Source: Minutocellus sp. GHC0000111
Lineage: Eukaryota
Assembly: GCA_977018835.1 (NCBI GenBank)
Contig: OZ361256.1
Span: forward strand, 1,612,001-1,676,000
Length of the DNA stretch: 64,000 bases
Direction: 5' to 3'
The notes beneath the pieces are model-generated. The model searched no databases. It saw only the letters and a program-made list of their open reading frames with translations, and was not told the DNA's origin. Of the stretch, positions 13,872 through 59,955 are shown in pieces; positions within the stretch are counted from its first letter, which is position 1, and the number at the start of each line of letters is the position of its first letter. The position numbers and the translations under genes were made by a program.

Positions 13872-14377
13872 CCAATGCAATTTTTTGATATCTCTTGACT
13901 TGGCTGACATTTATTTATTTTGAGGGGCAGTTGTGTTGTGTGCCGAAAGACGTTTCCCGCCTCCTGACTTTCTGATCGACTTTCCGCCGGGACAGTGAAG
14001 AGGCTCTTTTTGTTGTCGGCGGGGGCAGCAGCCAGCCAACTACACACAGACAACACACGTAGAGTATGTGTAAATGCCATGAAGTACAGTCCGACGGACT
14101 GTAGATCTAAGTAGCTAAATTTAGATCTAGCTAGATCTACATTACATGATGAAATTTCAGCAGTCGTAGATCTACCGGTAGTCAGATCCAGTCGTCAAGG
14201 TCTACTAAAGTAGACTCTCTACATGTATCGGTAGCTAGATCTAGTAGAAAACTACATGTACGAGGTCATGTACGAGGTCTAGAGCGAGAGTCAGTCTCTA
14301 GCTACCGGCACATGATGTATCCAGGCGTGTAGCACCGGCAAGGATCCGAAGAAATGTATTCAAGCGGCAGCTCATCA

Positions 14378-15194
14378 TCACTCGACCCGAAACTTCATTC
14401 CAGCCAATTGCTCCGACTTTTCCCAAAGACGTCGGGCTGCATCCTCATCCCTGGCAAAGGCATTCATTCTCTTCTTGATGCGCATACTGTAGTCATAGTA
14501 CTGTCCCTTGACCGGTGAACCCTCCGGCTCTCCCCTAGCAGCCAGCATCACCTGAGTATTTGCTCCCTCCTCCACGGTGAGGATGCTGTCGTAGAACAAA
14601 TCCGAAACAATCGATTGAATTCCGAGGGATTTGACATTATCGCCGTTGCCCTTGCCGTTACCTCCTCGATGATCCGTGCCGAAATAGGTCGTTCGCCATA
14701 TATCGGTTGCAACTCTTCCGGGATGCAACGAGACGGCCGTCAACCAATCCAACCCAGCTGCAGCTGCCCTCCGCTGCAGCTCGTTGGTGAACAGTATGTT
14801 CTCGAGCTTGGAACGGCATACTGAGGGAGGAGGGTGCTGGTTGGTAAATTTTGCTGCTGCTTCTTCTTTGTGGCGATGATGATGATGATGATGGGTCAAG
14901 AACAGCGGCAGAAGCCACGCCGGTTGCAGTGGCGCCGCTACTGCCACCGACCATAAGACCAAAGGATGCGACCGCCATTCCCGTTAGAATATCCCTCCTT
15001 CTGCTGGTATTATTGTTGCCGCTACAATTGTCGTGCTGGAGGTTTCGTTCCGGCGGTGCTTGCTCTTCGTCTTCCCAATGAGGCCCACATGTTATCGTGT
15101 GTTGCGAATTCGTTGGTCGCGCTGGTGGCGACCAAGCGACGACAGATGAAGGCGCCAGGAGAAGCGTCACGAAAAGAGCGACGGTGAGGAGCAT
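14378..15194 (-). pseudogene. Plastid-targeted short-chain dehydrogenase (retinol-DH/POR-like) with the Rossmann core deleted
   Basis: Signal peptide ending VVA-W, an SRRRDIL twin-Arg-like segment and YQPAPSSLS are joined out of frame (~14820) to the SDR C-terminus (RSKLENILFTNELQRR...AVSLHPGRVATDIWR...EEGANTQVMLA...ARRLWEKSEQL). No TGxxxGxG motif is present. Confidence 0.7.
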
Positions 15195-15429
15195 CGTGCC
15201 AATAATGCTGCTGTTTCAGATGTGTTTGTTCGTCATGCTTCTTTGGCTGTGATGCTAAGCAAACATTCGTCAGCAGCCACGGGCCCGCGCTGGCTGGCTG
15301 CTGCGATCTACGTACGTACAGCGTGTACGTTACACTGGACTCGATGAATTGAAGCACTACGTAGCATGGGACGCCGCTGTTCCCCCTCTTTCGTCATTCG
15401 TCATCATCATGAGCATCAACAATGATTGA

Positions 15430-15959
15430 GAGCCATTCTTCCAAACAGGTCCCACAGAGGCCTTTGGAAAACGGGCCTGGCTGGAAAACGAGGTTTCTGA
15501 CCCGATTTGAAAAAGGGCCTGTCAGTGGTCTCTCCAAACAGATTTCGAGGCAAAATGGCAAAACCGAGGGGCCGTCTCGAAAGAGGGGCTGTCAACATCA
15601 GAGGCATCTTCTTTCCCGGAACACAAGAAGATGCGATTGTGGAGCAAACATGCTGCAGCAGGCGTGGAAGTGACTTCACATTAGATGCAATAACAAACGC
15701 TAATGCCATCGCAAAGTCACTTTTGAGAGATCAACATGTGTTCATCATCGTTCCGGTCGAACTTTTTTATCACCACATGATGTGTTCCGCCACCTCGTTC
15801 TCCAGCTGGCGTCAGAAATCGATTTGCGATTCCTGACGCCAGCTGGAGAACGAGGCAACCCGGAAGTTTTTAAAACTCGAAAAAACGAGGCAACCCGGAA
15901 CTCGTTTTCCAGCCAGGCCCGACTTCCGGAGGCCTTGCGGGACCTGTTTGGAACGGCTC
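15430..15959. mobile_element. MITE-like non-autonomous element with ~55-60 bp imperfect terminal inverted repeats and an internal hairpin
   Basis: 15439-15492 (TTCCAAACAGGTCCC...GGGCCTGGCTGGAAAACGAG) is the reverse complement of 15901-15953 with about 6 differences. A perfect 23-bp inverted repeat lies at 15793-15815/15833-15855. No clear target-site duplication (TSD). Confidence 0.7.
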
Positions 15960-16093
15960 GACCGGGGGGGGGGACTCTCCGACATGCGTCCCGCCTGTTC
16001 AATTGTGTTGACGCCACTCATTCAGTCCAAAACTCATCGCATGTTTTCCTTCCTGTTGTGCTTTGCATGCAGCATGCATGTGCAAATCATAAA

Positions 16094-16500
16094 GTGGCCG
16101 TGACAAATCTAGTGAAAGATCAGCCAGAACATGTGTTGCGGATAGCCAATTTCGCCGTTGACACAATCCGGGCTGCGAGCGAGACGCTCATCGACACCTG
16201 TGATCCATCCATGGGATTCATAAAGATCAGAGCCGGATTTCACAGCGGAAGCGTCGTGGCGAATGTCGTGGGAAGGGTCAACCCCAGACATTGTTTGTTT
16301 GGTGACACGGTCAACACTGCCTCGAGGATGGAATCCAATTCCAAGCCTGGACGCATCCATTGCTCAGAAAAGTCTGCCAAATTACTGCTCCGGCAGCATC
16401 CGGAAATGCCAATGATGGCGTGTCTCGCGGCCTCGTGTCAAATAAAGAGGGCAAGGGTGACATGAGAACGTGCTGGGTGAACGAGCAGTCTCGCATGCGA
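16094..16500 (+). pseudogene. Class III adenylate/guanylate cyclase C-terminal fragment, hypermutated and frameshifted
   Basis: AVTNLVKDQ...[16 protein letters not shown]...[28 protein letters not shown], then after indels [12 protein letters not shown]. The N-terminal half of the domain is absent. The upstream sequence looks like an intron 3' end (…ATAAAG|TGGCC). Confidence 0.85.
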
Positions 16501-17322
16501 AGACAGACGTCTTTGACTAATGTCAGTCAGCTCCATTGCATCGTTGCGCAGACTCTCAAACACATCGTCACGAAGACTCTCCGCGACATCATCGTCTTCC
16601 AACACATGCACGGATGTCTCGCCCAAAACTCCTCTGCCAAATGCCCGTCAAGAAGCAAAAGCCAGGGGCTCAACGGCGGTCGAACGAAACGTGTCAAGCG
16701 ACTCAGTGTCAAGGAGACCGATGATGATCTTGTGGACCTTTTGAAGTTGAGAGATCGTCTCCAGTGTCCGTTGGACAAAGCCTGACTGAGATGAGAACGA
16801 ACGGCTACATGTGTGGTGAATTTTGTGCCGGTACCTCTAGATGTGCATGCATGTAGTGCAGATGGTTTTTGTGAACTCTAATTGCACAAATAATGAAGTT
16901 AAGTTCAATTTAGTTTTAACCCCCATGTAGATCTGTTAACATGCTTGCTACACAATGTTTTACCCTGCGGCCGTGAAAGGATGAATAAAAAATATCGGAA
17001 TGACGCGCGATGACACTGACGACACTCTCGAGCTCTCACCAACCACTTTAGCCATCGCCGCATGAGCCTCATTCGATGATGTTCGCTGCCAGTCGTCCTT
17101 TGGCCTTCAGTTCAGTCCTTCGTGTTGGTCCATTCATTCCACGTTTCCAGGCTTTGCTGACTACGAACTCGTAATTTCAGATCAGTTCAGGTCACCAGGT
17201 CAGTTCAGTTCAGTTTTTTCACCCCACTGAGTCGAGTCAGGCAGCATCGAGTGACGAACGCCATCAGCCTCACAATAACACAAGTCAAGTCAAGTCGAGA
17301 AGTCAAATACTTGGTGGTACCA

Positions 17323-20300
17323 ATGAACGGCCCAGAGAGGGCCCGAGCCGCAGCCGCCGCGGACGGGAGGCAGTTCCAGCGCCAGCCATCTCGTAGGCCG
17401 CAACCCCGTGACGTATTTGCTCGGCCTCCCGGAATACGCGACAACAATGGCAACCGCACCCGTCGAGCCTCGAGCGTGGAACGACGAAATGGTGCTTCTT
17501 CCACAAAGAATGCCATCGACAAAGCCAAGGCCAATGGCAAAGGCAAGAGCAGCTCCAAGGACAAGCAGCAGCTTCCAATGGCATCCTTCTCGGAGCTGTT
17601 TTCCTTCTTCGAGACGACGGGGACCAAGCTGCTGTTTGCCACGGGTTGCTTCGCCGGCATCCTCAATGGCCTCGTGTATCCCATCCTGGCCTATCTGTTC
17701 TCAAATTCCTTCTCGGATCTCGGCGGCGCGGCGGACGGGATGGCCAGCATCCGCAACGTGGCGTTTCAGTTTCTTGTTGTCGGTGCATACGCATTTGCCG
17801 TGGCGACGATCCAGACGTCGTGCCTGGAAGTGGCGGCGACCCGAGCGACGTTGGCCTTTCGCAAGCAGTGGTTCTCTGCTCTGCTGCGGCAGGATGCGGC
17901 CTTTTTCGACGTCCACGATGTTTCTGGTCTGGCCAGCACGGTCGGGTCGAGTGCCACGAAAGTCCGCCGTGGATTGGGCCGCAAGTTTGGTGAAGGGGTG
18001 CAGTTCTTTACGACGTTTGTCGGCGGTTTGATATATGCCTTCTATGCCAGTTGGAGGGTGGCGCTCGTAGTCATTGGTGTCTTGCCGTTCGTTTCCATCA
18101 GCGCTCTTGCCGTGATGAAGATCAACCAGTCGCAGACGGCTAGAGCCACCAAGGCATACAGTTCGGCGGGTGGGGTGGCGTACCAGGCCGTTGCCAGTAT
18201 CCGAACGGTATTAAGCTTGAACGCCGTACCAAACTTCATCAAGGAATACAAGGTGGCCACGATGGAGGCATACCGAAACGCAGTATCGCCGCTCTGGAAG
18301 CAGGGATTCGTCAATGGCAGTATGCTGGGATCATTCATCATCTTGTATTGCATCTTGACGTTGTATGGATCGTTCCTGCTCTATGAGGATATTCGGTCGA
18401 CGGGGTGCGATGCCTCCGCCGGCGTACCTGGAGTCGAGGATTGCGGTGAAACCGGACCATCAGTCTTTGGTGCGATGCTGGGTGCATTGTCATTGCATCG
18501 GATGAAGATTTGAGCAAAGAGATTGCCAAGAAGAAGGAGCAGCAGAAGAAGCAGAAGCAAAATCGGCGGAGGAGCAGTGCCAAGGGTGCACGAAAGAGCG
18601 TTCAATTCAACAATGAGGAGATCGATGACGATGAAGAGGATTCGTACGATAGTCTCGAGAGTGGAACCAAGACACATACATTGCCCAAATATTTGATTGA
18701 TTCTTCGTCGCACCACGGACTGAAACCAGCTAAAATCACTGGAGCGATTCGATTCCGAGATGTGTCGTTTGCCTATCCAACTCGGCCGGACAATCCAGTC
18801 TTTCGCAACTTCAATTTAGACATCAAGGCTGGAACAACGGTGGCCTTGGTCGGCCCTAGCGGTGGAGGTAAATCCACTACAGTGGGTTTGGTGGAACGCT
18901 TCTATGATCAACAGCAGGGCACTGTGTCGTTGAATGGCATCGATCTCAAGCTCATCAATGTGCACTACCTGCGGTCTGTCATTGGGTATGTAGGCCAGGA
19001 GCCTACGCTCTTTGCCACAACCATCGCTGGAAATATCAGATATGGCAAGCCAACTGCTACCATGGATGAAATCCGCGAGGCTGCAATAATGGCGAATGCC
19101 GATGACTTCATCATGAGCCTTCCCGATGGCTACGATATGCAAGTAGGAGACAAGGGCTCTCAGCTTTCTGGCGGGCAGAAGCAGCGAATTGCGAGTAAGT
19201 TGGAGTAGAATTGATGATACGCATTCTATTTGCATGGTCCAGTGACCATTACGAATCGTATGGGAGGTCGTTCAGTCGTTCAGTGGTCTCATTTTTTTTG
19301 CTCTTTCTTTATACCATGCGTTCTTTATATCATGCATATTCCAGTTGCCCGGGTCCTGGTTGCGAACCCGAAGGTCTTGATCCTCGACGAGGCGACGAGT
19401 GCGCTTGTAAGTATGGAGTGTAGACAACTAAACCTCGTTCGGTATCCTACAACATATTTCGCCCCGTCGCTCTGCCTGCTCATTGAATTCGTTTCTCCTT
19501 CTTTCTTCCATTTGATCTGCAAACGTCTAGGACTCTGAGTCAGAGGGAGTTGTCCAGGAAGCACTTGACAGACTCCGACAGGAACAAAAACGCACCACAA
19601 TCATCATTGCGCATCGATTGACTACGATCCGCAATGCCGATGTGATCGCGGTCATTGCTGGGGGCAAGGTAGTCGAAAAGGGTACTCATGAAGAGCTGAT
19701 GGACTCTCAAATAGGAATGTACCGTAATTTGGTGGAGAAACAGGAGGCCAACCCGGGATCTGCTCCTCCATCTCGTACCAATAGCTCCCAGAATCTTCGA
19801 GGCAGTATGAGAGAGAGCTTTACTGACATGGAAGTCGCCGATGGTGGCACCAGGGCGAGTCTCCACGTATCCCATCAGCTCAAGTTTCGCAACGTTACCT
19901 TCTCGTACCCTACTCGCCCGGGGAAGCTCATCATGGATGGATTCAATCTATCAATCCGCAAAGGAGAGACCCTGGCGCTTGTCGGGCCTAGCGGGGGAGG
20001 TAAATCCACTACGGTTTCGCTTATTGAGCGATTCTACGACCCCAATTCCGGGACTTTGGACTTTGAAGGTGTGGATGTCAAGGATTTGAATGTGAAATGG
20101 CTTCGCGATCAAATTGGAATGGTGCAGCAAGAACCAGTCCTCTTCAACGGGAGTATTTTCAAGAATATCGGCATGGGTTGGGATCGAGCAAAGCAATCCG
20201 ATATTATCGAGGCTGCCAAGGCTGCGAATTGTCACGACTTTATTTCAGCTTTTCCGGAAGGATACAACACCGAGGTCGGGGAGGGGGGGACGCAGACCAG

Positions 20301-21921
20301 TGGAGGTCAGAAGCAACGCATTGCTATCGCCAGAGCTCTGGTGAAGAAACCAAAGATTCTTTTGCTCGATGAGGCTACCAGCGCGTTGGACACCGATTCT
20401 GAACAGGTAGTGCAAGAAGCTTTGGATGGGCTCATGGCTAGCCATGACAGGACGACGATTGTAATAGCTCACAGGCTTTCGACCATTCGCAATGCTGACC
20501 GTATTGCCTTTGTTGCCGGTGGCAAGGTCCGGGAGATTGGTTCTCATGATGAGCTGATGCAGAAGCCCAATGGACGGTACAAGAGACTTGTCGAGTCGCA
20601 AAAGCGATCGTCGACAGTTGATCTGACCGCGATCAAGGAAGATGCTGTATTGAAATCTGCCAGCAATGATGAAGAAGAGGAAGATAATGAGGCTGGCAAA
20701 GATCTCGAGGAGGATACTGATAAAGCTTTCGATGCCAAAAGAGCTCGGCAGATGGCCTTGCCTGACCTCAAGTTCCTCCTGTTTGGCGCTTTGGGAGCCA
20801 TATTTGCGGGCGGTGTGTTCCCCGCTTGGGGCATTATGTTCGCCTTTATGATTGAATTGCTCTTCCGTCGAACTCTGCCGTGTCCTGCCGAGGATGGGTC
20901 TATTCCTTTTGGCTACGATTCCTGCGATGCCTACCATGACGCTCTTGCCGATGACATGCAGTCCACCTCGTACGAGCTCGGCGTCTACTGGGCCGTCGTC
21001 GCCGTGGGATGCCTCGTTGGTAATGCCCTCGTGTTCTGGGGATTCGGCATGGCATCGGAGCGTCTCAACAAGCGCGTTCGTGACTCTGCATTCTCCGCCC
21101 TCGTTCGACAAGAGGTTGCCTTCTTTGACAAGCAGAGCGTTGGTAGCATCATATCGCAGCTGCAGGACGATGCCGCGCTCATCCATACGTTCAGCGGCGA
21201 ACCGATTCGATCTCAAATAATGAGCCTTTCCAGTGTCATCACCGGTCTCGTCGTCTCGTTTGTGTACATGTGGCCCTTTGCATTGGTGTCCTTGGGAACA
21301 ATCCCATTTATGGGTTTCGCCACCAGTGTGGAGATGAAAGTCATGTTTGGAGAGGACGAAAGTGACGGCGACGGGAAAGAGGGCCTCAGTAATCCCGGCG
21401 GGATCATTGTTGAGACGCTTCTCAACATTCGAACTGTCGCCGCCCTCAACATGGAGCGCCAACGATACAACGACTATGTTCAGGCCCTCCACAAGTCCGA
21501 ACCGCACGCCGTCCTCAACAGTGTCAAGTCTGGTGCTACTTCCGGACTGTCAATGCTGATTCAACAGTGGAGCAACAGTCTACAGTTTTGGTGGGGCGGT
21601 TGGCTTCTCTTCAACTATCCAGAAGTCTTCTCGTTCGAGGATTTTCTTGTCTCCATGTTCGCTCTTCTATTTTCCTTGTTTGCTCTCGGCGCTGCGACAC
21701 AGGGCGCATCAGACAAGGATAAAGCGAAGAAAGCCGCAGGAAGAATCTTCTATCTGCTCGGTCGTAAGAGTGCTATCGATCCCCTTGGCACCGAGGGCGC
21801 CAAACTTGGTAGGAGACCAAGTCGTTCGAGCAGTCGGGGACCGAGTAGTCGCCGATTGACGAATACCGGCAGGAATCCGAGCAGTCGTCAAATGCAGCGC
21901 GGTCCTAGCAATCGGATGTAG
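17323..21921 (+). CDS. ABCB/MDR (P-glycoprotein-like) transporter with domain order TMD-NBD-NBD-TMD; introns 19195-19344 and 19407-19530; frame break at ~18484
   Basis: TMD1 (LLRQDAAFFD), NBD (GPSGGGKST, LSGGQKQRIAIAR, LDEATSALD), a second NBD (GPSGGGKST, TSGGQKQR, LDEATSALD) and TMD2 (LVRQEVAFFD) are present in that order. Both introns are canonical and in frame. Confidence 0.88.
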
Positions 21922-33553: not shown

Positions 33554-34517
33554 GGCCTATCCCCGATAATTTCAAGCATCAACGAAACGAACTTCTACAG
33601 GAAAGTTCACACAGACCCAAAACTACCGGCACACAAAATCATCTCCTACTTCATATTAGACATGCACCTGCACCTGCACAACGGCTTCTCCTGCCGTACG
33701 GTACTCAATAAAAATGTAAGATGAAATTATGTGATCTTTTGCCTCCTACCGGTAGATCTACATGGCAATTTGCAAATATTTGATAAACGTAGTTTACGTA
33801 GAATTTATTCATGCATGTCTACATGTAAGGTGGAGCCTATTCGGTTACACATGTGTTTACATATAATTTGATCTAGCATGCTTGTTTGAGACCTCAGTTT
33901 TTTGCTCCTGATACAGATACATTAGACTACATGTACCTAGGTACTAGTCTAGATCTACATGTACAGGTACCTAGGTACATGTTGATCCTCATACCGGCTA
34001 GATCTAGATCTGCAGAAATGATGCCAAAATTGGTCAATCAAAACCTGAGACGCCGCAACCGCGGATTGGGGCGAGGGAACAAGGAAGTGAATGTCAGAAT
34101 GCAAATCCACGTGACCTCGTCTCATAGAAATCGATGGCAAGATTGGACACTAGACTCTAGGTTCTGCAGGAGTTTCTGGAAAAAAGAGCCTCCAGTGTTG
34201 CTCTCGTCAGAAGATCTAATCATTGTGTCAGAACTGGTCCCATTCTTCCAATTTCCCATTTTCTCCCGTGCCCGTTCAGAACAGAAACTGGGACCGGGAC
34301 ATGCCCAAGACAGGCGAAAAAAAAATCAGACGCGAAGAGATAATCGAAGGCGTCTCGCATGCATTTGCATTTGGTGCTATGCAATCTTTTTGGATGATCA
34401 CCCCCTCCGTCACTCCCACTTTCAATACAAGAACATTCCCACCACTCATCAACGTTTAACTCCCACTCATCAAACCTATCCGATCTACACACAACGCACC
34501 GTCATTCAACATTCGCA

Positions 34518-36235: not shown

Positions 36236-36713
36236 TGAAGATCTGTCAACGCCACACGGCACCGGAAAACACGCGGAAAAGAGCACGCTCCTTCCCACAA
36301 TAACGAAAAGAACACCCAGAAGCCCGGATACCCGCGAGGGGGATGCAAGATATACTAGAAACAGTAAAGATACGGGATGATGGTTCGCAAGGAACGTCGT
36401 GATCAGGTGGCTGGCGAGCCGCATGCAGTAGATGACCTTCACAACACCCCGAAATCGACAAGAGGATGCCACGATGGCAACTCCTGACTCGACTCGCTCG
36501 AGAAATATGTCGGCCCCGAACGCCGAGGAAGCACCCACGTCTCGCCACAGTCAGTAGTTGCTCGCGGCGGCAGTCAGGCAAAGAGCGAATTCCAATCGAC
36601 ATAATTTCCAATACCCCTCACTGTTTTAGGCGGTTGAGACAATTGGTTGAGAGGTATCACGAAAAAGCACCAGCATTACAGTCAGGCCTCAACTACGTAG
36701 TAGACAACCAACG

Positions 36714-38486
36714 ATGAAGCAACACCCACGCTCCAGCACAGCGATCCTTTTTATCCTTGTGGCAGCAATTGTCAACAACGCCACTCCTGCCTCGGCATTT
36801 ATCGGCATCCAAAGCAAAACAAATCCTTCTCGCCCTTCCTCCGTTGCATCCCAACATGATCACCGGCTGATTAAAGTTCCACCGACGGCGTCAACAACAA
36901 CCTCCCTTGAAATGACCGGCGGTGGAGGAGGGCTGTTTGCCTCGGCCAGCGAGGCAGTTGCCCCTCTCTTCACCCCCATGGTCCGCCGGATGCTCCTTGT
37001 TTTGGGTGCGGCCTATCTTGTCCTGACCAAACGGCTAAACAAGATTCTTTATCCAGGATCTGGCAGCGACCCAACTTCGGATGCGCCCCTTCCGCCAGGA
37101 TCCTTAGGCTGTCCATTCCTTGGAAAGAACGTCATGGCCGGATCGACCGAGTATGGGCCGACTGTATTCTTCAACAACGCCCGAAAGAAATTGGGAAACC
37201 CATCCATATTCAAATCCTTCGCCTTTGGATTGCCCATGGTGAGCGTATCTGGCAAGGAAAATATCAAGAGTGTCCTCAAGGACGAGTTCAGTCCCACGGG
37301 GGTCAACACGATGATGGTATCAGACAATCTCGGATCCATATTTGGATTTGAGAGTCTGCTGTATGAAAAGGATAAGATGGAGCACGCATCGCTTCGACGA
37401 CTCGTGGGTTCGGCCATGAGCCCAACCTCAATTGCTGCGGCCGTTCCTTCCATCCAGGCCGCTGCCGATGCTCAAATGGAAAAGATCCTTTCGGCTGATA
37501 CCATTGAAATGGAAGATGTTTGCAACGATTTTACTCTAGATGTGGCATGGAGGACGATACTCGGCCTGGATCTTGTTGGAGAAGACGAGGTTCACACATT
37601 CCACACAATGGTCAAGGGGTGGATATCTGGTATGTTCAATCCTTTCTTTCTTTTGCCCTTTCGCTTCCCATTTATGAAACAAACCAAAGCCTACAAGGGT
37701 CACCAGTACCTGGTGTCCAAGGTCGAAGAGAAGCTCGCAGATCTAGAGAAGAATGGACCCGATGGGTCGACGCTCAGTGCGATGTATTTTACCGAGGACA
37801 CAGAGGACAATTCAAAAAGACTTACCCACCAGCAGGTTATAGACAACAGCTTGATACTAATCATTGCCGGATCCGAAACTAGCGCATCAACTCTGACCTG
37901 CGCTTCACTTATATTGGGACTTCATCCTGATGTGTGGGCAAAGGTCAAGGAAGAACAGCAAACTATTCAATCCCAGTATGGGGACGGACTTACAATAGAA
38001 ATTTTTGACGAGTGTACGTACCTCGATTCCGTTCTGAAAGAAATTCTTAGAATCAAACCGATTGAAGGAATGGAATTCCGAAAGACCGAAAAGACCCTTG
38101 TTGTCGACGGGAAGCAAATTCCTAAGGGATGGTTGATATTCAACAACGTGAAAGCGACGCATGTCAACGACCCCGTCCTTCAAACCGATGACGAGTCACA
38201 CATGGATGTCCGAAAGGGATTCAATCCTGACAGGTGGAACGACGAGGCCACCAAACCGTCGGTTTGGCTTCCCTTTGGAGAAGGCGGGAGACGCTGCCTT
38301 GGAGAAAGACTCGCCATGACGGAGATGAAGATCTTTTTTGCCACCCTTGCGCGAAAGGTTGACTACGATCTTGTCAATGTAAAGTCTTCAGACGATGAGA
38401 TCAAATGGAAGAAGATGACCGCAATGGCGAGGCCCCTCGATGGCGCTGAAATCAAGCCAAGAGCTGCTGTGCCTTTGTCCCTTTAG
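36714..38486 (+). CDS. Cytochrome P450 (CYP120/CYP26/CYP85-clan-like), predicted plastid-targeted
   Basis: Signal peptide with an ASA-F cleavage motif, LPPGSLGCP, AGSETSAS, EILR, PDRW and heme motif FGEGGRRCLG. Confidence 0.92.
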   Translation: MKQHPRSSTAILFILVAAIVNNATPASAFIGIQSKTNPSRPSSVASQHDHRLIKVPPTASTTTSLEMTGGGGGLFASASEAVAPLFTPMVRRMLLVLGAAYLVLTKRLNKILYPGSGSDPTSDAPLPPGSLGCPFLGKNVMAGSTEYGPTVFFNNARKKLGNPSIFKSFAFGLPMVSVSGKENIKSVLKDEFSPTGVNTMMVSDNLGSIFGFESLLYEKDKMEHASLRRLVGSAMSPTSIAAAVPSIQAAADAQMEKILSADTIEMEDVCNDFTLDVAWRTILGLDLVGEDEVHTFHTMVKGWISGMFNPFFLLPFRFPFMKQTKAYKGHQYLVSKVEEKLADLEKNGPDGSTLSAMYFTEDTEDNSKRLTHQQVIDNSLILIIAGSETSASTLTCASLILGLHPDVWAKVKEEQQTIQSQYGDGLTIEIFDECTYLDSVLKEILRIKPIEGMEFRKTEKTLVVDGKQIPKGWLIFNNVKATHVNDPVLQTDDESHMDVRKGFNPDRWNDEATKPSVWLPFGEGGRRCLGERLAMTEMKIFFATLARKVDYDLVNVKSSDDEIKWKKMTAMARPLDGAEIKPRAAVPLSL

Positions 38487-41600: not shown

Positions 41601-44600
41601 GCCTTGATCACTGTAAACGAAGGAAGACAGTTACAGTGAGGAAATAAAAAAAATGGTTACGATGAGCGGTATGCAACCCAGCTTCCTTGCTGGGTGGATT
41701 CAATCATTTCGACCGTCCATTACCAGAGAAGCAAAGAGAGATACTTACCTTGTCCGACATATTGTACTCGTTGAAGAATCTTACAGACAAGGCCCAATGC
41801 TTTTGACGTGCTGGCTCCGTCTTCAAGAACGTCCGAAAGATCGGATACCTAGGTATGGGATCAAGAAAAGCCTTTACAATTTCCAGCACAACACCTGCAT
41901 TTCCTCCAATATCACTCAGGACCCCTTTCAATTGGGAGATGTAGCTCTCTAGGTAGTCGGCGGCTGCAATTAGTTCGCGCGCTCTTGCACCAAAATCACT
42001 CGTAATAAAAATATCAAAGAGAAGGTCCGGATCTGTAATCTCTTCTACGGCAGCTGACGGTTTCACTGCTATCTCGATCGCGTCGCCGCCTCTGCCATAC
42101 ATTTTCCAGCCATTACGAGGGTCCAGACTATTATGATCGCAACCTTCCAAGATAGTGTTGTAGCCACATTGTTCGGGAGAATCCCTTCGTTCAATGCAAG
42201 CTGCACCATTGCTTGATGGAACCCCCAATTCGAACTGTTTCAAGACATTGTTCTCTGGACCAGCGAGCGTCCAGAGTGTGTCTTGGCTTCCTTCATCGCA
42301 TCGCCTGATATCCACAAGATTAGGGAACAACGAATGCCGAGCAAGACACAAGGCGGCATTCGTCGATGGATGGAATCGTTTGGAAATATAGCTGTATTGG
42401 AGCAGTGGAATATTACTGCTGGCGATCGAACAATCTTCGTAGGCGTGATATCCTTGATGCATAACGTTGTCGTCGCACTCTATGTCTGGCGGGTCCAAAT
42501 CGAAACCAGTATTCTTCGCCCAATCCAAGTCTATATCAAAAAATGTTGTAGGAGTAGGACTGCCTTTGCGATACCAGTCAAAGGTGCCGTCTGATCTTCC
42601 TTCCAACAAGCTTTGCTTGGACATGAAACCAAATACATCAATCAATTCCAAATCGTCAGAACCGTCGGGTTTTGCAGCGATGGCAATTGTGAGACCATTG
42701 CTGGTATCAAACTGCTCACCAAGTTGCACATTGATCCGACCATTTTGCCAATCTTGAGGGACAGTGATGGCACTTGTAATGGCAATGAAATATGATTTCA
42801 CCTCGTCCGCATCGCTGTTGCCATACCATATTTGTAGTACTAGATTTTTGTTTGCGTGAATCATCTTGCCGGCCCCATTTGGCGAATATAATTCGACAGA
42901 AGACTCAGACAGCCCTTTCGAAACAGCTGTGATCAGTAAATCATCCTTGGCCGGGTCAAAATGAGCCCAGATCCAAGATCTCGCCGTTGTGCCTACTGAA
43001 TCGGCCCACTCCCCGGCAGAATTGACAGAGGGAGCAATAATGGAGCTAAGCCGGATGACGACGGATCCTCCTTCGGTAGATGACAGTTTGTCAACATCTA
43101 CAAACTCAGAGCTTGTCTCGTCCATGACACCAAGAATTAGATCGTAGCTGCCCGATTGCCGGCTTGCGAGGGCAGATTGACCCTGAGTATCCAGAGTCAC
43201 ATCGCAATTATTATCGGAAGAAGTTGCACAGAGTACAAAGAATCCATCTGGGGGGATCCTTGTGTCCAGGAAGTTGTGTACGGTATCATGCTAGACCCAT
43301 TTCGAAGGTACAAGGCCACGTTGTCCCTGATATATCTGTCGCCGCTTCCACCGAAGAAATACAATTTGATGTAATTTGATGATACTTCTGTGATGACCCC
43401 TTGCCTTCTTGGCGCAGCGAGGCACTTGCCACCATATGCAGAAGATTCCAATTTCATAGGCGAACTATGTTCTCTCGTTGTTAGCTCGCATAATGCGAAT
43501 CGTCGCCAGGCCTGGTTGGTGTCGGATTGGTCGCAGGTCTCAAACGAGAGGGGCGAAGAAAGACTAGAAGTGTCGCTGACCTGCCCCGTCGAAAGACATT
43601 TTCCATTTTGGACGATCCGACCAGATCTCTCGACTTCGAAACGAGAAGAGGAAGTGGTACATGCTGCAGTAGATGCAATTAGCTTGTTGTCGTTGTCTTT
43701 TGCTAGGCACATGATTGAAGGTGCCAACCCTCCGTAGGTCGGAAGTTCGCGCTTGGAGTAGTACTTGAAGTTGGCCGCATCAGCGTTGTCGACCGCACAG
43801 GGAGTGTAGGCTATGAGTCGAAAGTGCATAGTGAACGTTGGGTACATGCTTTAGCACCAAGAAAATATACTTCGCACGTGCTTGGGTAACGGTCCTCGGA
43901 AAAGTCGGGTCCATTTCTCATCAAGTGACATGTTTCCCCTGCAAGATTTCTTTTCGCCGATGACAATGTACTGTCACATGGCTTGAAGATATTATTTCGT
44001 TTCTCATACTGCGCATTGAGAGTGCAACCTTGTCCATCAAAAGTCCCTCCGCAATATTCAAAGCCCACGCATGTGGGATCGTCTTCACAGTGTCGAGCGC
44101 AATCTTCCTCGGTTGTTGACTTCAAAATTCGATAGACAGAATCCTTCCAAATCCGGATTCCTTTGCTTTGAATATTAAAGAAGCCCTGGATTGAAATTAT
44201 TACACGCTCCTTGACCTTTCGCTTGTACAAGGAAGGATCACTCGGGCTCGGAATTTGAACATCAAAGGACCCATATGGCTTGAGAGCTGATTTCCAGGTC
44301 GACCCAGTCTGCATCACGGTGCCCATAGAGTCAATAGTGGAAACAATATCTTCACGCGACATCATAAGGAGGTAGCACCTACTCTGGTTTTCATTCCAGT
44401 TCACTCCGTTGCAAGCCTTGTACAGATCGCATTGGATTTTACAGGATTGATAATCCGAGATCGGCGATCCAGAACTAGAATCTCTTTCAATGAGAGATCG
44501 ATATGCGGAGGGTAACGACCAATTATCGATATAGCTTTCATTGGGTGTTCCCACTTTCTGACGGTAGCCATCATAGAGCCTCTCTGTCTCACTGCCTGAG

Positions 44601-47600
44601 ATCGTCCGAGAAACTCCAACGGTGATCCATTGACGACTACCAAAGAGATACGTCCACGATGTCCGCGCATCGACTTTTTGGCAGTCTTCGAGATTCACAT
44701 CAAAGCCCGATTGCGTAGGAGAGACGGCGGAAAGGCAGGATGAACTAGCCACGTCTTCATCTCTTGTAAGCTTCGTTGGTAGTGATGCAAGTTGCACCCT
44801 TGTGAGTGGGTCATCGCATGATGCAACAAGATCAATATTCGTTGGGGTAGTTCGAATGCATCGACCTTGCTTGGCAAAGAAGAAATTATCACCGTCTCCG
44901 TGTTTCTCCCATTCCTCTCTAGCGTCCCCAACGTTGCAAGGCTGAGTAGAAATATCCGATTCATTCTCTAGAACCAAGCAAAGGTCCCGAAACCAGAAAC
45001 GAAGATGTACAAGGCAGATGCTGTCTTCTTCATCACATCCGCTGATGGTTTCCAATATGAGCTTTTGATCGCTGTAATCGTCGTCCGTCGCATCAATACT
45101 GGGAACAATATTGTCATTTACGTCTAGAGACCAAATCACAGGAACAAGGCTACTGCTCTCGAAGTTTACGGAAATGATCCGTGCTGGTTCGGCCAGCTCA
45201 TCTTCAAAACCGGGGCTCCGTCGTCGGTTGGTATCGTGAAGAAAGGCGTTGCAATCATCCAGAAGAGAACAAGTCGCTGCGCACTCGCGATATGAAATAC
45301 CAGAGATGGCAGTGAAAATACGTTCGGGAATTCCCAGCCAGGTAATCTGATCAATAAAGCTTCTTGTGTTGATGTAGGCTGTAACGTTGGACTGTGGACA
45401 GTTGTCGGCAATGTCGCCTACTTGCGCCAAATATAGTTGACAGACACCACTGCCTCTACCACTTATGTCGGCAATAGAAAAATGGCGGCAAAATGACTGT
45501 GCTTCGCATATCGCCATGCATTCCACATAAGTTTTGTCAACAAAGCTATGCCCTGGCATCGGTTCAGAAAGGCAAGCGCCTGGGGCCTTGACGTAAGGGT
45601 TTGTCGAGTACTTGATGGCCACTACAGCGCCAGCAACATTGCAGGGCTCTATGGAGAGCTGCGATGCTACATTGCTATCGAAGAAGTGACAAGCTTTACC
45701 AGCCTGCAGGGCATAGCCCCTGCAAGAAGGATCGGTAATACACTGAGCCTCGCATGTTTCCTCCGTATCTTGTCCCGCTGCCAGCGAGACAGTAGCAATG
45801 CATTGGCCATAGAGAGGTACGATGGAGTCTGGCGCTTGTTCAAGGAAACGCTCGTAAGAGATATAAAGATCTCTCTGTGTGTCGACACAATCCGACGAGA
45901 ACTAGAAGACAAACAGAAAGAAGGGTAGCGACGAAGAATTGAAAAGAAGTTAGATCACTTCAAACCTATCAGAATAGGAATCCGATACGATGCCAACTTA
46001 GCCTGCTTACCTCCGTTGTGCCATACAACTCGCAGTCGCCGTCTCCTTCATGTTTCATTGAGAAACACCCTTCGAGGGCAAAACATGCTGCCTTGCATGC
46101 TTCAATTGACATATTTTCAAGGGAAATAATGGGACTGTTGGATGCGGGGCAAAACGTATTGTCTAAACGAGTGTAGGGATAGCTGGACTTGTACAGGAAG
46201 AGGGTCAATGGAGAGAGACTGGTACCACCAGTACAATTGGCGACTCTATTCCACGCGGACTCATACAATCGGCAGTCACCGACATCAGTTGAAGACGCCT
46301 GAAAGGCGCGGCAGTCGAACCAGGCATTGCAAAGTGCCGCACACTCTTCCTTCGTCTTTTGTGTGGTGTCAAAACTTAGTGTGTCATAAATGCACCAGTC
46401 TTGATGCGGATCGCCGACGTAGATGTTGTTATCAAAGATAAGATAAGGCTCCACAGTTGCAGCTGGACTACCACCGGAACATTCCGAGTACAATACCAGC
46501 GGATAGTCATTTGAGTTCAAAGATCTTTCGTACATGGCGCACGTACTCAGAGAGCTTTCGTATTCGTATCCACTACAAGCAGGGTCAATTGTGCAGCCTC
46601 GCAACTCAAAGGGGAACTTTCGTTCAGAGTTCTCAGGGGCAACTCATTGCACCAACTCAATGAATTCAGCCCGTCTACCGATCCATCGTTAGTGATAGAG
46701 TTGATGCGCGCAAAGTCAGTCGGCCAAGGTTTGAGGTCGTAAGAAATCCGAAACATTGAATTGGGGGGAAGGTCACATCCACCATCGACAACCGCGAATT
46801 GAGCTGTCGAGTAAAACTTGCAAACAAAGCTTGAAGGCGTCGGTTGGAGATACACAAAACCACAATCGCTGTGGTGATGACAAAATGCCTCGCACTCTTC
46901 CTGTTCGAAAAAGGCAGATGTTTCCATTATGAGGGCCCCTTCGTCGGGGCACCAGCTCTGAACAAGTGCGGTGAAAGGGTAGGAGGGTTTGGCAATGAGA
47001 TCTAGAGTGCCATCCTGTGCAGTTGTTGGAGCATTGTCTTCTTCAAAAAGCATGCACTCGAATGATATCGCTCCACACCCGTGTACAATGTTGCAAATGT
47101 GCTCGCAGAAAACAAGAGAAGGCGGCGCTATTACTGCCAGTTCTCCTTCAATGCCCCGGATGCCCCCGACGTCAATCGAAGATTGAGCATACTTGGAGTA
47201 GGTGCGCTCGGAGTATCTTATCTCGGCCGTGGGATCGGTGTCCGCAAAGTCAACATAACGAAAGCCAGGCTCGAAGTAGTGTATACAAGACGTACTATTG
47301 ACAAAAGCAAATGCACTGCATCGAGATGAGGCGGCGCAGGTTTCTTCGCAACGACTTGGCGAAGTTCGGCCATCAAGAAGGATAGGCGCTCCACGATGAG
47401 CTAATGAGGGGTGCATTAGAGATGCGCCCGGTGCCTCATTGATTGGCAACGGCAGACCAGGATCCCCGAGATACAGTGTACGAGCATCGGGACAGCCAGC
47501 AAATGCAATCTCGATATTCTCAAAAAGGACACATGCACTGTCGTGGACGAACGCAGTACATCTGCAAGGAAGAATGGGTGCAATTTTGGTAACATAGCAG

Positions 47601-50600
47601 AAAAATAGTTGAGATTAAAGAGTGAGTAAACATACAATGTACATGAAACAGATTTTCGGTGCTTCCGAACTCACTTTGGATGCACAGTACAGAAAAGTTC
47701 GCAAATATTGAATGGAAGGTTGCTGCCTTCAGGAACAGCATTCCCAAGATCCAGGCGCCTATCTCGGGCGATGCACACTTCGCCTAACCCAAAGTATGAA
47801 TCTTGAGGCGCAGCAGAAGATTTTGAAGAAGAACGGGCATCGCGTTCATTTTTTGCAACCTCCAAGCCGAAACCAAGCGTACAGGTAGTACCGTTGAAAT
47901 TGATCGAGTCGCATTGACTTCCAAGTATACTGCATAGAGTCTGGCATTGAGAATTCGATGCAACTATCTCTCGAATCTTGTCGAAGTGACCGGAAAATTG
48001 AAAGGCAGGAACGGCGCTGCTTTCGTCTTCAAAGGTGCTGATTCCATGGTTCTCATAGCTACCAAAGTTCAATATGTGAGTTCCTAACCAGGTTGAAACT
48101 CCAGTGTTGCTGCATGTCGTGGAGCTGAAAAGACCGCCAAGTGACTCCTGACCAAATAGGACACATTTGCGCTGACCCATTATATTGTCAAAAGTGAACG
48201 CTCTGCAAAGCTCCTTGATGTCGCATACGGTTCTACATTCAAACCAATCCTTCGTATAAATTTCGACAAGCGCGCCGAAGGGATCAGAGAGTTTGCATGA
48301 TAAATCGATAAGACCATCAGCCTCGCTGTACTCTCCAGTACGATCGGCAGCAAAGACGTTGAGGTCTCCGATGACATCTTGCGATGAAGATTTTTTTCAA
48401 GTTACGCCCAAATTTGGGAAAACGATCGCCAGCAAAGACGTAGAGGTCTCCATTGTCGTCTGGAGAAGTAGTTTCACAGGTCATCACCTGACGATGGCTG
48501 TAAAATTGGCAAAGACCAATAGATTCGTGATAGACGAAGGAGAGGCAATCAACCAAAGCGTTACAGGTGGCTTCGCACTGAGTGACGTAACGAACAGATA
48601 GATCAAAAAGAATTCCACTGTTTTGAGCAACCTGTAAGCAGGCCCCCGTGCTAATGTGAACAAAGTCGCCAATAACAGCTGCCTTTTCTTCTATCGCCTT
48701 GTATTCTATGCCAAAGACATCTGGTCCAAGACCGGGACAAATATCGAAATCTCCTCGAGAAAGTAAGACACAATCTTTGGCATTGTCTCGATTCGATTCA
48801 AAGGTGAAAGCCTCGCATTGCTGCAAGTAATGACAAAGGATCTGACATCGAACGAGGGAATCTGTTTTGACAGCTGTAATTTTGGATTCGATGTCTGCGA
48901 TACATGCCAAGTTCAGACTTTGTGCAACGAATGGGACTTGTTCAATGGCTTCATAGAAGGTAGCTCCAACAGAGCAATTGCGTGAAGAGCAAAGGGCATA
49001 GTTAGAGCTGGAACAAAGAGCGCACCTCTCTTCCAGTGAACTGGCCAATGAGTTAAAGTGGATTCCTGAACATTCGAGGTCGTTTTGTTTTTGTCGTCAA
49101 TCACATCTGTTGCTGCAATCTTCCAATGTTCTAGCATCGGACTCGACAATATACCCTGTGCCATTGCCCCCAAAGTCGTTTGAGCATGCGGGATGGTTTG
49201 TTTCATTGACGGCAAGGTATACACGTGCTGTATCTAGCAGTTCGATCGCATCGGTCCAATTTGACCCTTCAATCACTCCGAGTGACGGCAAAGTTTGCAA
49301 TTCGATAGAAAACGTGCTCAGTGTTCCTTTGGTGGTACTGACTGTAGCATTTTGATCCAACGAAGAACAGGAAGCAACGATGGATCCACCCCCCTCCTCG
49401 CTGATCTGTGCATCATCAATCAGACGAGTCGATGCTACCTCAATATATCCGTTGTTGCTTATTACGTCGCTAAACCCTGATAAGATATTGCGAAGAAGAG
49501 TCAAAGTACCCGAATCGATACGTGCTTTGACTGAAGATAGAATAAGACCATCGAGTCGGATCTCTGCAAAAGGATTGACGATGAATGTAACATTTGAAAG
49601 TGTATTCGATGAATCATCATCACTCAATGCCACCAGACCGATTCGACGGCGAGAAAGTACCGAAATAGACGAATTAGTAAGTAAGCTTGTCGCTGTGCTG
49701 TTGGTTGAGTTCATTGAATCCGAAGACACTACGATCTCCACAGATCTCCACCCGTCGAGGGACAATGTGTCATCGAGATATTCCTGCAAATCGAAGTATC
49801 CCAGACTTTCAACATCCACCAAGCGCGTCTGAGGGGTTGTGCATACCTCTTCCCCAGACGAAATGTTCCGTTGGTTGGCGACATCAATCTCAATCCGGGA
49901 GATTTGATCACAAGAAGGATCGTTTTGAAGAGAATCAGATGCTGGGTCAAAGTCGATCTCCAATGTAGATATAGAGCCCTTCGAAACGACGAGGCATTGG
50001 CTCGACGCAAATTGAGAGCAGACATTTCTGCAGTCGAAGGCATTGGTGCTGCTGAAGGACCACATCGTCTCATTGTAGTGTAGGATGTCTACTTCCAGCA
50101 ATGCAGCCGACCTCGTCTTCCTCCTGGTGTGGCTCGAAACGGAATGAATCTGGCAGTTGAGAGAAAGAGTCTCGAGTCAAAATTGCTCTCCACTTTGTTG
50201 AATCTGCTTCAGACTTGATAAAAGAAAGTGGAATGCTACCTCGACTTGAAAGAGCTGTGACCCGAAGGGGGAATGACGAATGTGTGGTGTTCAAAGCATA
50301 TCCTACAAAGGAAAGATTGATTCACTCACAGAGAAGGAAAACTCGATGGAGACGTAGAGGGCTCGAAACTCGGTGTATTTGATGGGCTAGAAGAGGGTGC
50401 ATCGGCAACATAAACACTTGCCGTGCAAGTAGCCTCGTTGCCATTACTGTCCGTAGCAGTCAATTTCACCGGATTCTCGCCCATCTCAGACAACGAGAAG
50501 CTTTCCACATCCAAGGACAACTCCACGATGCCACAAGCATCCGATGATCCATAATCGATTTGAGCAGCTGTGATACTTGCAAATCCGCTGGCATCAAGCG

Positions 50601-53600
50601 AAATCGTGATATTATCGCAGATTGCATTTGGCGCAATGTTATCTTCGACCATAATGGAAGTCGTGCAACTGGCCTCATTCGAGTGAGAGTCGGTGATGGT
50701 AAGGACGACGGGGTTTGTACCGACATCGGCACAGGTGAAGGAGGTTCTGTCTAGAGCCATGCTCTTGAGGCCACATGGGTCGCTGGAATTCTTGTCAACG
50801 GCCATCGGCGTTGTGGCGCCATTGCCATCAGAATCCAACTGGACGGTCACATTCTGACATACTGCACTGGGAGCAACAGTGTCCCTCACGAGAGGACAGG
50901 GATCCTCAACATCCTCCAGCCCGTCATTATCATCGTCGGAGTCGCAGGCATTGGGCTTGCCATCGCCGTCAGGATCATCCCCGGTGACGGTTACTGTCGC
51001 CGCGCAGGTCGCTTGGTTACCATTCACGTCGACCGCAGTCAATTCGACAGTGTTGGAACCAACATGAGAGCAGCCAAAGGATGTCAAGTTCAATGAGAGG
51101 ATGCGAATGCCACACGAGTCACTGGATCCGTTGTCAATCTACATGTGGTAGAAATGGGAAAAATCGCCGAGCGACAAGACATCATGAAGCAGGCACCGTG
51201 AATGTTGAGAAGAGGATCATAGCTCTGTGCCAAATCACATAGCAACAAAAGCAAAAGGATAGATAAGCAACCAAAAATCAAGAAGAAAAGCCTTCTGTAA
51301 GTCCGCGCCAAGGGCAACAGTGACATCCTTACAGCGAACTTCAGGAACGACGCTATCCAAAATATTTACTCCTGCATGGCAAGCGTCTGTGTTGCCGTTT
51401 ACGTCGGTGGCGGTCAGTTTCACGGCGTTCGAGCCGACGCTGTTGCAGCTGAAGGATGTTTGATTCAAGTCCAAACTTATAATTCCGCCTTTCGACCCAT
51501 TATCAATCTCGGAGGAATCAATAAGAACACTTCCATTGGAATCCAATTGTCGATCAATATTTCGACAGATAGCGGATACATAATCTGTAGGCTCCGACGA
51601 AGGCGAAGCGCTCGGTGTCGAGCTCGGCTCCAACGAAGGCGAAGCGCTGGGCATGGAACTCGGCTCGCTGGAAGGCATAAGTGACGGGGCCCGGCTTGGT
51701 ACTCCACTCGGCTGTTGCAATATTGTAGCGTAAGCAATGAGGGATTGTTGAGAACAAGAATGATAATATAAATATCGATGATGCAGAAAGATACAATAAC
51801 ACAAATACCTTACCTTTGCGCTTTGCTTTGCTGAGGGCAGCGCAGAGGGCATGCCCGAAGGTGTTGCAGACGGCTGTGGTAGCAATGCATGTAGAGGATC
51901 TTATGAGGGTGAGGAAAAGAAGAAAAAAATCAAATCCGCGACACAAAAATCGATAATACAGAAAGGATACACAAGCGCGATCGCCTTACATTTGCGCTTG
52001 GCAAGCTGCTCGGCACGCCCGAAGGTACACCACTCGGCCGCCCAGACGGCATGAAGCTCGGGCCTACTGAGGGCTCTAAAGAGGGATCCTTGCTTGGCAA
52101 GCTGCTCGGCACGCCCGAAGGTACACCACTCGGCCGCCCAGACGGCATGAAGCTCGGGCCTACTGAGGGCTCTAAAGAGGGATCCTTGCTCGGCAAGCTG
52201 CTCGGCACGCATGAATGCTCCGAAGGAATTGGCGAGGGAACGGCAGACGGGTAGTGAAGGCCAACACACGCACCAGACTGACAATTTCCATCACCATGAG
52301 TGAAAATATTGAAATCATCACCACAAGGCAAGATATCCATCGCCAATGCATCAAAGACACACCCCGACCCGGGGCTACAGAAGTCCAACGTGCACGGATT
52401 GCCATCATTACAATCCGAATCGCTCTGGCACTGCGTGGGAGTCAACGACGGGCCGAGAGGACTAGGCGCCGAAGATGGAGCTCCGCTCTCGGCTGACGGG
52501 CTTGCGCTGACCACCGACGATGGAGAATCACTCTCCGTGATGACGGGCGACGAGGATGGTACCGACGACGGCCCCATGGATCTGTCACTTGGAGATGAGG
52601 ATGGATGCGTTGATGGTATTGACGAACTTTTGTCGCTTGGTGAGGAAGACTCATCACTCAGATTTGTCGATGGGAGGCCACATTCTAAATCAGCATCAGT
52701 ACCACTTTTATTGGTGATTGTACATGTAGGTTCATTTGCCTCAAAAGAATCAAGAGCAATGGATGACAGAAGCTCAACTTCGTTTGTTTCCGCAGTCTCC
52801 CGGACCGCGGCGGCAAGATCACCCGAATCAACGGCCTGGCTCAAATCTTTGGTCCCTGTTTCGTACAACTGGTTGGAAATGGTCTCGACATTTGCAGATT
52901 CCTCACCATTATACTCGATAGTGGAAATGACCTCAAACTCAACGCTCACTCCGCCACTGGCCTGAAGCAGGCGAAGACGACCGCCAGAAGCAGTGTCACG
53001 TCGGTTGGTAATGCTGGGGCTATTGACAGCCACTCCACCAATTTTCGTAATTCGTACCCTTGAATTTTCGGGGAGAAAATTTGCGATGCTTGAAGCTAGA
53101 ACCTCAGCCAGCTTGGTCATTTCTGCACTAGACGAGGAAGGAATACTATCAGCGTCGATATTTTCAATCGCAATCGCGGCCCTGTAACCGATCTCAACAA
53201 CAACAAAAGATCTTTCAGAAGGAACCGGACTTGTCGGCGTTGAGTCAACGAAGACAGGCTGGCGACTGGGGGTCAATGATGGCCTTTTCGTTGGCAACGT
53301 GATAGCCGGCGGCTCCGAGGAGGAGGAGGAGGTGAATATTTTCTTCATGTTGTTGTAATATCTCTCTCGGCAGGAGGACTTGCATTTTTTCCGGCACTTT
53401 CGGAACTTTTGTTTCCTTCGACGACGTCGACTACTGCATTTCTTCTTGCACTTTCGTAGGCACTTTTTCTTCTTGCGCTTCAGGGTAGATAACAAAGATG
53501 ACGCGCTTCGATGCTGGAAAACATTGTCGAACGTATCTTCCTTTCTTTTTTCCTCAAAGATCGACGAAAGCCGCCTCTTTGTTGACGCAACACCAGCTTT

Positions 53601-54275
53601 GATGGCTGGATCATTTTCTATTATACCCTCTATCACCTCAGCAAGTTTCGGCAGAGCATCATGGCGTAAAATGGAATGAAGAATATCAAGTTCTTGTCCC
53701 CGCGTCAATGCTCCTTTGAAATCGTGCAGCATTTCGAGTACAAATTCCTCGGGCACTTCGGTAGATTGAGCTATAGCAACAACCACCGTAGGGTCCATGT
53801 TGAGGATCAGAGCCAAATCATTCATCGACTCTTCCACAAGGCGTTGACTCTGGACCAAATCCTGGACCTTTTCTTCATCATTCGACTTTAGGGGCCCAAC
53901 GAGAGCTTCAGCCTACATGTACGAGCAAATTTTCAAAATGGAGAATTGTGGAGTGGAGAGAAACAGTAAGTGAGATATGGCGTACCTAGGTAAACGCACA
54001 GGAAGTGGGAAGTACTCGTAAAGTATTGCAGGCGAATATTATCAATACAGGTGAAAATTTACCTTTGTCGATTTGCTGTCGAAATTACCGTCCGCCTCGC
54101 TCTCTGTATTTGTCACTCCATCATGGGTGTGCAACACCGAGGTGAACTTATATGTCGCTGTATCGGCGACATCCTCGTCTCCAACGCCGGGCAGTACTGA
54201 GTTAGTGCCAACGTCTCCAGCGACAGGGACAGCAGGGGCCATGGAAAATGCAAGAAAGATGGGGAGAGAAAACAC
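38669..54275 (-). CDS. Giant multi-exon extracellular protein (Pro/Ser repeats, HYR-like repeats, TSP3-like Ca-binding motif, many PAN/Apple modules, ricin-B-like repeats); start uncertain, several frameshifts and one in-frame TGA
   Basis: A chain of same-strand ORFs from 54275 to 38669 is linked by GT-AG introns (e.g. 39763-39860 joins KPE to LQLELTEVET in frame) or by single-base shifts. Repeated C..xC...C..F PAN patterns, QxW ricin motifs and PSxxPS repeats are visible. Confidence 0.72.
51997..52210. repeat. 96-bp coding tandem repeat (2.2 copies) encoding PSSLPSKDPSLEPSVGPSFMPSGRPSGVPSGV
   Basis: Identical units start at 51997 and 52093, with a partial third copy at 52189. Confidence 0.93.
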
Positions 54276-57200: not shown

Positions 57201-57294
57201 TGCTTACATGTGACGATTGTGCATGTACTACATGTACTTCGCGTAGCTACATGTACACACATAAATTTAGTCTTTCTTCTTAATATATATATTA

Positions 57295-58044: not shown

Positions 58045-58116
58045 TATATATTAAAAAGCACATGTACATACGTAGATGCTAGCTACATGTATTCTACCGG
58101 TACGCAGCTACAAGTA

Positions 58117-58583: not shown

Positions 58584-58713
58584 TAGTCTACATGTAGTAC
58601 AACTTCTACTAATGGCATTCTTTGCTGATTTGTAATACATCTGTTACATGTTGTACACGGGTTACTACAGACAAACGCCCGTGCAATGGCAGGTAATATA
58701 TCTACACTTATCT

Positions 58714-59808: not shown

Positions 59809-59955
59809 GGTTTAGTTGCTTTGCTGTAAGCTTTGCTGGTAGCCGAATGGACGAATGGACGGCCTGGGACGGACGGCGCCGCACTCCGCTGGGCTGGGTG
59901 TGGGCTGATAACCTCTTGCAAATCGCTTCATTTCTGACTCTTTGCATCGATCGCC

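Follow-up and report, generated by a model that had tools for sequence, protein, structure and literature searches.

Why should some 1.4 kb of a diatom chromosome have lost nearly every TpA (TA) dinucleotide? The question arises in a 64,000-nucleotide stretch of Minutocellus sp. GHC0000111 (contig OZ361256.1, positions 1,612,001 to 1,676,000; hereafter the window), for which the original prediction had proposed a repeat-induced hypermutation that turns TA into CA or TG. The predicted block, said to hold about 12 TA, contains exactly 12 (15365–16800, 1,436 bp; observed/expected ratio 0.14 versus 0.59 outside). When the TA ratio was computed along the 64 kb, the block scored lowest among all intervals of 1,436 bp; the 42 non-overlapping intervals outside it have a minimum of 0.40, a mean of 0.57 and a standard deviation of 0.11, which places the block at a z of −3.9. 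Its cyclase exon, at 0.16, falls below the coding range, since all 20 long open reading frames of the window lie between 0.39 and 0.69. Intergenic DNA elsewhere in the window is TA-rich, reaching 1.3, and thus there is no genome-wide loss of TA.

The deficit depends on the neighboring bases. RTAY is absent from the block, as had been claimed, against 17.6 expected, and TA with neither a 5' T nor a 3' A (VTAB) occurs twice, against 33.6 expected. Most of the surviving TA are found in TTA or TAA (10 observed, 16.0 expected). The claim that none is GTA is correct for the plus strand, but one survivor, TTAC at 16383, reads as GTA on the minus strand. Elsewhere in the window, the next longest runs free of GTA and TAC measure 434 and 451 bp (33992–34426 and 36700–37151). 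The block has a CG ratio of 0.95 and is thus undepleted in CG; CpG decay was rejected as the cause.

The block derives from a receptor kinase-guanylate cyclase gene of which internal deletion has left a remnant, and this remnant holds a MITE of about 530 bp (Table 1). The predicted coincidence of a MITE with an orphan gene fragment was borne out by the inverted-repeat arms, an empty site and the broken cyclase remnant. The closest full-length relative, P0129, is a 1,695-aa protein with kinase and cyclase domains; its residues 160–177 match 15968–16021, and residue 1499 onward matches 16094 onward. A tblastn search of the 64 kb found no other part of P0129, including its upstream cyclase exons. 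In the RNA run X7, a contig splices an upstream cyclase exon to 16095, which indicates that 16022–16094 is an intron remnant and that an intact transcript is present in that population. RNA contig loose ends of X7 and X9 at the N-terminal remnant translate, by eye, like P0129 on both sides. The ATG at 15366 (MGRRC) gave no alignment to the start of P0129 and bears a by-eye likeness only, a weak lead. The 227-aa reading frame at 15782–16465, noted earlier for having no Tyr, has indeed none; however, it is a read-through of MITE, remnant, intron and exon rather than a gene. An intact relative, P0002, has just 2 Tyr in 221 aa, so the absence amounts to two losses. Another protein, P0123, joins its cyclase part to an N-terminus of unrelated sequence whose motif we take to resemble a bacterial pilin, and this fusion is probably a misassembly. 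In the match lists of both the cyclase and the ABCB transporter, the named relatives that rank near the top come from diatoms. A search of Rfam with the MITE interior gave five hairpin matches, every one below the gathering score.

Table 1. Features of the TpA-poor block and its surroundings (positions in the window)
Feature	Position	Strand	Details
Short-chain dehydrogenase-like gene, left neighbor	14378..15215	-	PDB 3rd5, E 3e-6; weak protochlorophyllide reductase matches; TA observed/expected 0.54
TpA-poor block	15365..16800	.	12 TA, observed/expected 0.14
MITE-like inverted-repeat insertion, ~530 bp	15430..15959	.	Arms ~15430-15492 and 15901-15959; multi-copy; absent from second haplotype
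MITE interior	15524..15845	.	Lacking in the common shorter copies; hairpin with 29-bp arms at 15793-15855
N-terminal kinase-cyclase remnant	15968..16021	+	P0129 residues 160-177, 11/18 identical, pairwise E 4e-6
Deletion junction and last-intron remnant	16022..16094	+	3' splice AG at 16093-16094
Last exon: C-terminal half of cyclase domain and tail, frameshifted	16095..16790	+	PF00211, E 2.5e-22
3' flank, partly converted	16791..16990	+	4 TA>TG; 12 TA shared with other haplotype
ABCB transporter gene, right neighbor	17325..21921	+	TA observed/expected ~0.5, normal

Public runs from at least two studies supply a comparison. Runs X1 and X5 hold two haplotypes. The first resembles the window and has a depth of about 70 in X1; the second has a depth of 86–94. 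The second haplotype joins 15430 directly to 15968 without the MITE, and this joint has a depth of 85.8 in X1; the phase of the empty site with the TA-rich exon is read from the depth (86–94) rather than from one contig. Contigs of the MITE arms reach 504–735, versus about 70 per haplotype, and the joint 15523>15846 of the short copies reaches 519; most MITE copies lack the 322-bp interior. Contig depth, although a rough measure, is 145–163 for the exon and 141–188 for its flanks in X1, so no extra copy of the exon is needed. The dehydrogenase gene on the left lacks, in the window, 542 nt that the other haplotype carries at 14818/14821; this length would join the two reading frames of the gene. 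The haplotypes also differ at 50 sites in 14261–14818.

A basecalling artefact at modified bases (listed in the original prediction as a possible refutation) or an assembly artefact can be set aside with near certainty: although no record gives the library types of X1, X2 and X5, X1/X2 contigs are identical to the window over 15186–15870, X5 contigs, from another study, over 15186–15501 and 15472–15767, and X1 at 16025–16192, 16359–16502 and 16475–16624 (0 differences), and the Illumina RNA run X6 reads the window's C at 16289 (depth 3.4). X6 and X9, both Illumina RNA runs, cover small parts of the block. Elsewhere the runs disagree with the window, so that they are not the source of its sequence.

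Between the two haplotypes, 23 substitutions are listed in 16111–16671 (a count that retains 16424, probably an alignment by-product of two small duplications); nine of them turn TA of the second haplotype into CA or TG in the window, and the opposite transition does not occur among them. The other rows related to TA are one TA opposite AA and one TA private to the window that arose by transversion. With the second haplotype as ancestral, A/T>G/C changes in 16095–16700 affect 9 of 30 A/T bases within TA versus 4 of 264 others (Fisher P 1.9e-7). A test without polarity agrees, because 9 of the 13 C/T and G/A differences sit where they make TA (P 0.006). The exon has lost 10 of 16 TA and the 3' flank 4 of 16, the four flank losses being the TA>TG sites 16827, 16845, 16849 and 16943; between 16827 and 16986, four of 12 differences are TA>TG among the 40 listed of 113. 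The conversion at 16732 is taken from a loose end of X5, which also shows three non-TA differences and lies outside the Fisher test. Site 16708, where the window has Val and all eight close relatives have Ile, Met or Asn, is likely another TA>TG; it was left out of all counts, as no DNA shows it. With the flank and the loose end included, 14 conversions stand against 0 reversals, divided evenly between the strands (TpA>TpG 7, TpA>CpA 7). Their context is RTAY in 10 of 14, with a 5' purine in 12 and a 3' pyrimidine in 11; within the exon alone, the difference in loss between VTAB and TTA/TAA is non-significant (P 0.12). CG>CA differences run two one way and three the other, and this lack of CpG-decay asymmetry gives no sign of methylation. 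We are highly confident that the block records a local TpA-specific hypermutation. As proposed, it acts on both strands and is locally confined: all 42 other intervals in the 64 kb score at least 0.40, and the neighboring genes score about 0.5.

The direction of change is fixed by several comparisons. The two altered motifs read as they had been described, PRH and MRTCW; all 8 close relatives, whose proteins are nearly identical, show Tyr at each of the two sites and a Met at 16732. In a wider set of 129 relatives, those matched by the motif patterns have Tyr or Phe at the two sites without exception (118/118 and 115/115). None of the 118 motif-matched diatom cyclases shows a change of Tyr to His or Cys; the remaining 11 were unmatched by the pattern. 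QHPE, suggested earlier as a third lost Tyr, is not one, since His stands there in all eight close relatives. The spliced X7 RNA contig agrees with the second haplotype at each of the 7 sites in 16095–16332, five of which are TA. Relatives' proteins, spliced RNA and the 14-to-0 count therefore all support the proposed direction from TA to CA and TG. Furthermore, the X1/X5 version of the window's own haplotype retains T at 16289 and 16306, both within TA, which suggests that the loss is stepwise, recent and ongoing. Gene conversion could also have introduced these two TAs, and would look alike.

We consider it very unlikely that ordinary pseudogene decay on a TA-poor background, or a gain of TA in the other haplotype, produced this pattern. 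Coding DNA in the window is TA-poor in any case (0.39–0.69), 13 of the 23 exon differences remove no TA, and the numerous small insertions are those of relaxed selection. Decay does not, however, account for the loss of about 60% of TA sites in the exon against changes at about 2% of other sites, other A/T bases having changed about 20-fold less. Intergenic DNA, which is TA-rich, does not show such a loss, and the proteins and spliced RNA argue against a gain of TA as the direction.

As for the small insertions, among the differences listed in 15394–16834 the window haplotype has 12 short insertions (1–10 nt, mostly tandem duplications) versus one deletion relative to the second haplotype, and in 17017–17229, again among the differences listed, X1 has five insertions versus one deletion relative to the window. 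This bias toward small duplications is strong and is perhaps species-wide or the product of staggered nicks.

A comparable process has been reported, whereas the original prediction knew of no named mechanism and had called for a literature check. In two integrated viral inserts of Bigelowiella natans, 230 of 231 mutations are A>G or T>C, all of them at TpA; this hypermutation acts on both strands, is sharply local and runs against the usual AT bias (bioRxiv 10.64898/2026.01.13.699255). According to the same preprint, TpA-poor sequences of B. natans are enriched in transposon domains, the de novo rate is about 1000-fold over background in some lines only, and an ADAT2-like deaminase is proposed, though not shown, to be responsible. 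So far as the preprint text goes, our locus resembles it in the concentration of A:T>G:C changes at TpA, in the presence of both TpA>TpG and TpA>CpA, and in its regional confinement. The two cases differ in host, since ours is a diatom and the preprint text contains neither "diatom" nor "stramenopile", and in target: here it is what remains of a host gene next to a non-autonomous element, there a virus. Unlike the effect described in the preprint, ours is seen between two haplotypes and is hence cis-limited, and it is known from haplotype differences rather than from rates. In addition, the RTAY flanking preference found here has no counterpart in the B. natans main text, in which the word "trinucleotide" does not occur.

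The chemistry that we would propose is adenine deamination by a TadA/ADAT2-like enzyme, giving inosine that would be copied as G; we put this step at about an even chance. Amphioxus ADAT2, which belongs to the eukaryotic tRNA deaminases and acts on adenine in DNA, offers a precedent, although its reported preference is for GAA and TCG rather than TA (PMC10354150). It is improbable, but worth weighing, that the same targeting works through other chemistry, namely mispairing with G by a thymine that is modified at TpA, or the action of an error-prone Y-family polymerase. At TpA, a T>C and an A>G change are the same event and look alike in the sequence, and the preference for a 5' purine and a 3' pyrimidine fits no enzyme tried here. 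Polymerase eta, for example, leaves a WA>WG signature and would strike AA and TT too; the four A/T>G/C differences of the exon that fall outside TA are never in AA or TT, which argues against it. The strict use of TpA also agrees with the B. natans report. ADAR-type or fungal A-to-I hyper-editing of RNA is likewise an A>G change, with a preference for a 5' U. Retroposition of such an edited RNA was rejected, since the changes fall equally on both strands, an intron remnant lies upstream of 16095, and the changes are fixed in DNA.

A diffusible RNA guide alone should strike both near-identical haplotypes, from which we infer a mark in cis, and the MITE is proposed as this mark because it is the most visible cis difference between them. 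We therefore favor, as somewhat probable, a model in which the MITE, acting in cis, flags the chromosome copy it sits in to a host mutator. This mutator would deaminate the adenine of TpA and so convert T:A to C:G on both strands. Insertion of the MITE would be the trigger, a step we hold about as likely as the model itself. Silent chromatin would spread from it over about 1 kb until it meets the flanking promoters, and the mutator activity would be continuing. The limits of the TA-poor zone do coincide with the flanking promoter regions.

Several observations fit this model less well. The MITE is TA-poor like its other copies, and the proven changes sit in the host exon beside it. No substitution between the haplotypes is listed in 15365–15429 or 15968–16054, both TA-free stretches, and where other MITE copies or sister contigs are compared, no TA is restored by any of the eight listed differences. 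The 5' half is thus TA-poor in both haplotypes and in the other MITE copies, and its deficit is not haplotype-specific; perhaps the MITE family lost its TAs at an earlier time, or perhaps it never had many. The designation "repeat-induced" is accordingly half apt: a multi-copy MITE adjoins the exon, but the mutated exon itself is at flank-level depth, and a second inverted-repeat element at 57293–58046 keeps its TA (observed/expected 0.77). The latter is MITE-like, with 92-nt arms that are 91% complementary, internal subterminal repeats and TA-rich ends. The zone of loss is lopsided as well, extending about 980 bp to the right of the MITE, with TA-rich DNA beginning 65 bp to its left. The second haplotype, with a TA ratio of about 0.43, lies at the low end of the normal range; codon sampling, a method that ignores codon-junction avoidance, expects 23.7 TA in the exon, so that the 15 of the second haplotype are low too. 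All of this evidence comes from one locus.

It is also conceivable, though we think it unlikely, that the same TpA mutator strikes any dead or silenced gene unit, recognized by an aberrant transcript, silent chromatin or unpaired DNA. The MITE would then be a passenger, and the second exon would have died later or been refreshed from an intact allele. The extent of the block does follow the gene remnant more closely than it would a zone symmetric about the MITE, both haplotypes lack TA in the 5' remnant, the second haplotype's exon has the letters of the spliced X7 RNA at 7 of 7 sites, and the second MITE is untouched. Against a general attack on dead genes, the internal deletions seem to be present in the second haplotype too (joint 15430>15968), which still keeps its TAs, and the broken dehydrogenase gene that adjoins the block keeps TA at a ratio of 0.54.

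TA-bounded palindromes are abundant in intergenic DNA throughout the window (TACATGTA 21, TAGATCTA 14 and TACCGGTA 6 times; for example at 14100–14300, 33700–34010 and 57000–58600), and three at the edge of the block had been described as half converted. This applies to TGCCGGTA at 16826, where the other haplotype has A at 16827, but not to the other two. TACATGTG at 16806 arises from short insertions relative to the other haplotype and is not a decayed TACATGTA; TAGATCTG at 16928 shows no internal difference among the 40 listed of 113, in which its neighbors 16908 and 16943 appear. A scan of JGI metagenomes gave no match to the cyclase pattern and two to the MITE pattern, in which only the 21–22-nt pattern is shared, amid bacterial-like genes; these were judged to be chance.

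The window also contains an adenosine-deaminase (editase) gene on the plus strand at 59938–61605 (PF02137, E 3.9e-34), with HAE and PCG motifs and PDB matches to ADAR catalytic domains. Judging from its sequence, the product is probably ADAT1-like, as Pfam shows no dsRNA-binding domain in frame. Its position 43 kb from the block is likely a coincidence; the gene is a candidate all the same. On the minus strand, long frames with PAN, HYR and PT repeats at 41700–53900 probably belong to one very large predicted surface protein, and a perfect 96-nt tandem repeat lies at 51996–52187.

Our results also bear on the relation with RIP (repeat-induced point mutation). Among ascomycetes, RIP converts C:G to T:A, mostly CpA to TpA, and so creates TA; it acts on duplicated targets, is premeiotic and depends on the RID methyltransferase. 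RIP makes local, context-specific transitions on both strands near repeats and leaks into adjoining unique DNA, and the changes described here are likewise local, context-specific and on both strands near repeated DNA, from which they reach unique DNA. In contrast to RIP, TA is destroyed here, the direction being opposite according to the proteins and spliced RNA, and the mutated exon has no extra copy (145–163 versus 141–188 in X1), only the MITE arms being multi-copy. In the literature searched, mostly outside subscription journals, no diatom report of TpA hypermutation came up. What is new at this locus is a diatom host gene allele at flank-level, single-copy depth that was changed in cis on one allele beside a MITE, which we infer to be the trigger.

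More tentatively, diatoms may possess an active, transposon-nucleated adenine-editing defence that works in cis: from a non-autonomous element of as little as 0.5 kb it would reach about 1 kb into host genes of single copy, rewriting one allele and leaving the other. Shared with chlorarachniophytes, such a defence would parallel RIP across SAR, with chemistry running the opposite way. If true, this reading would mean that the defence contributes to the divergence of alleles in diatoms. For A-to-G editing of genomic DNA as a natural defence, there is a single preprint to draw on and no enzyme. Our study extends the signature to a second eukaryotic lineage, where two haplotypes of one gene in the same sample, with and without the element, serve as an internal control. 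The trigger (cis or trans, repeat or dead gene), the reach and the chemistry thereby become directly testable. The locus is suggestive of a natural DNA adenine editor specific to TpA, and the divergence of alleles and the stability of transgenes in diatoms may be shaped by such editing.
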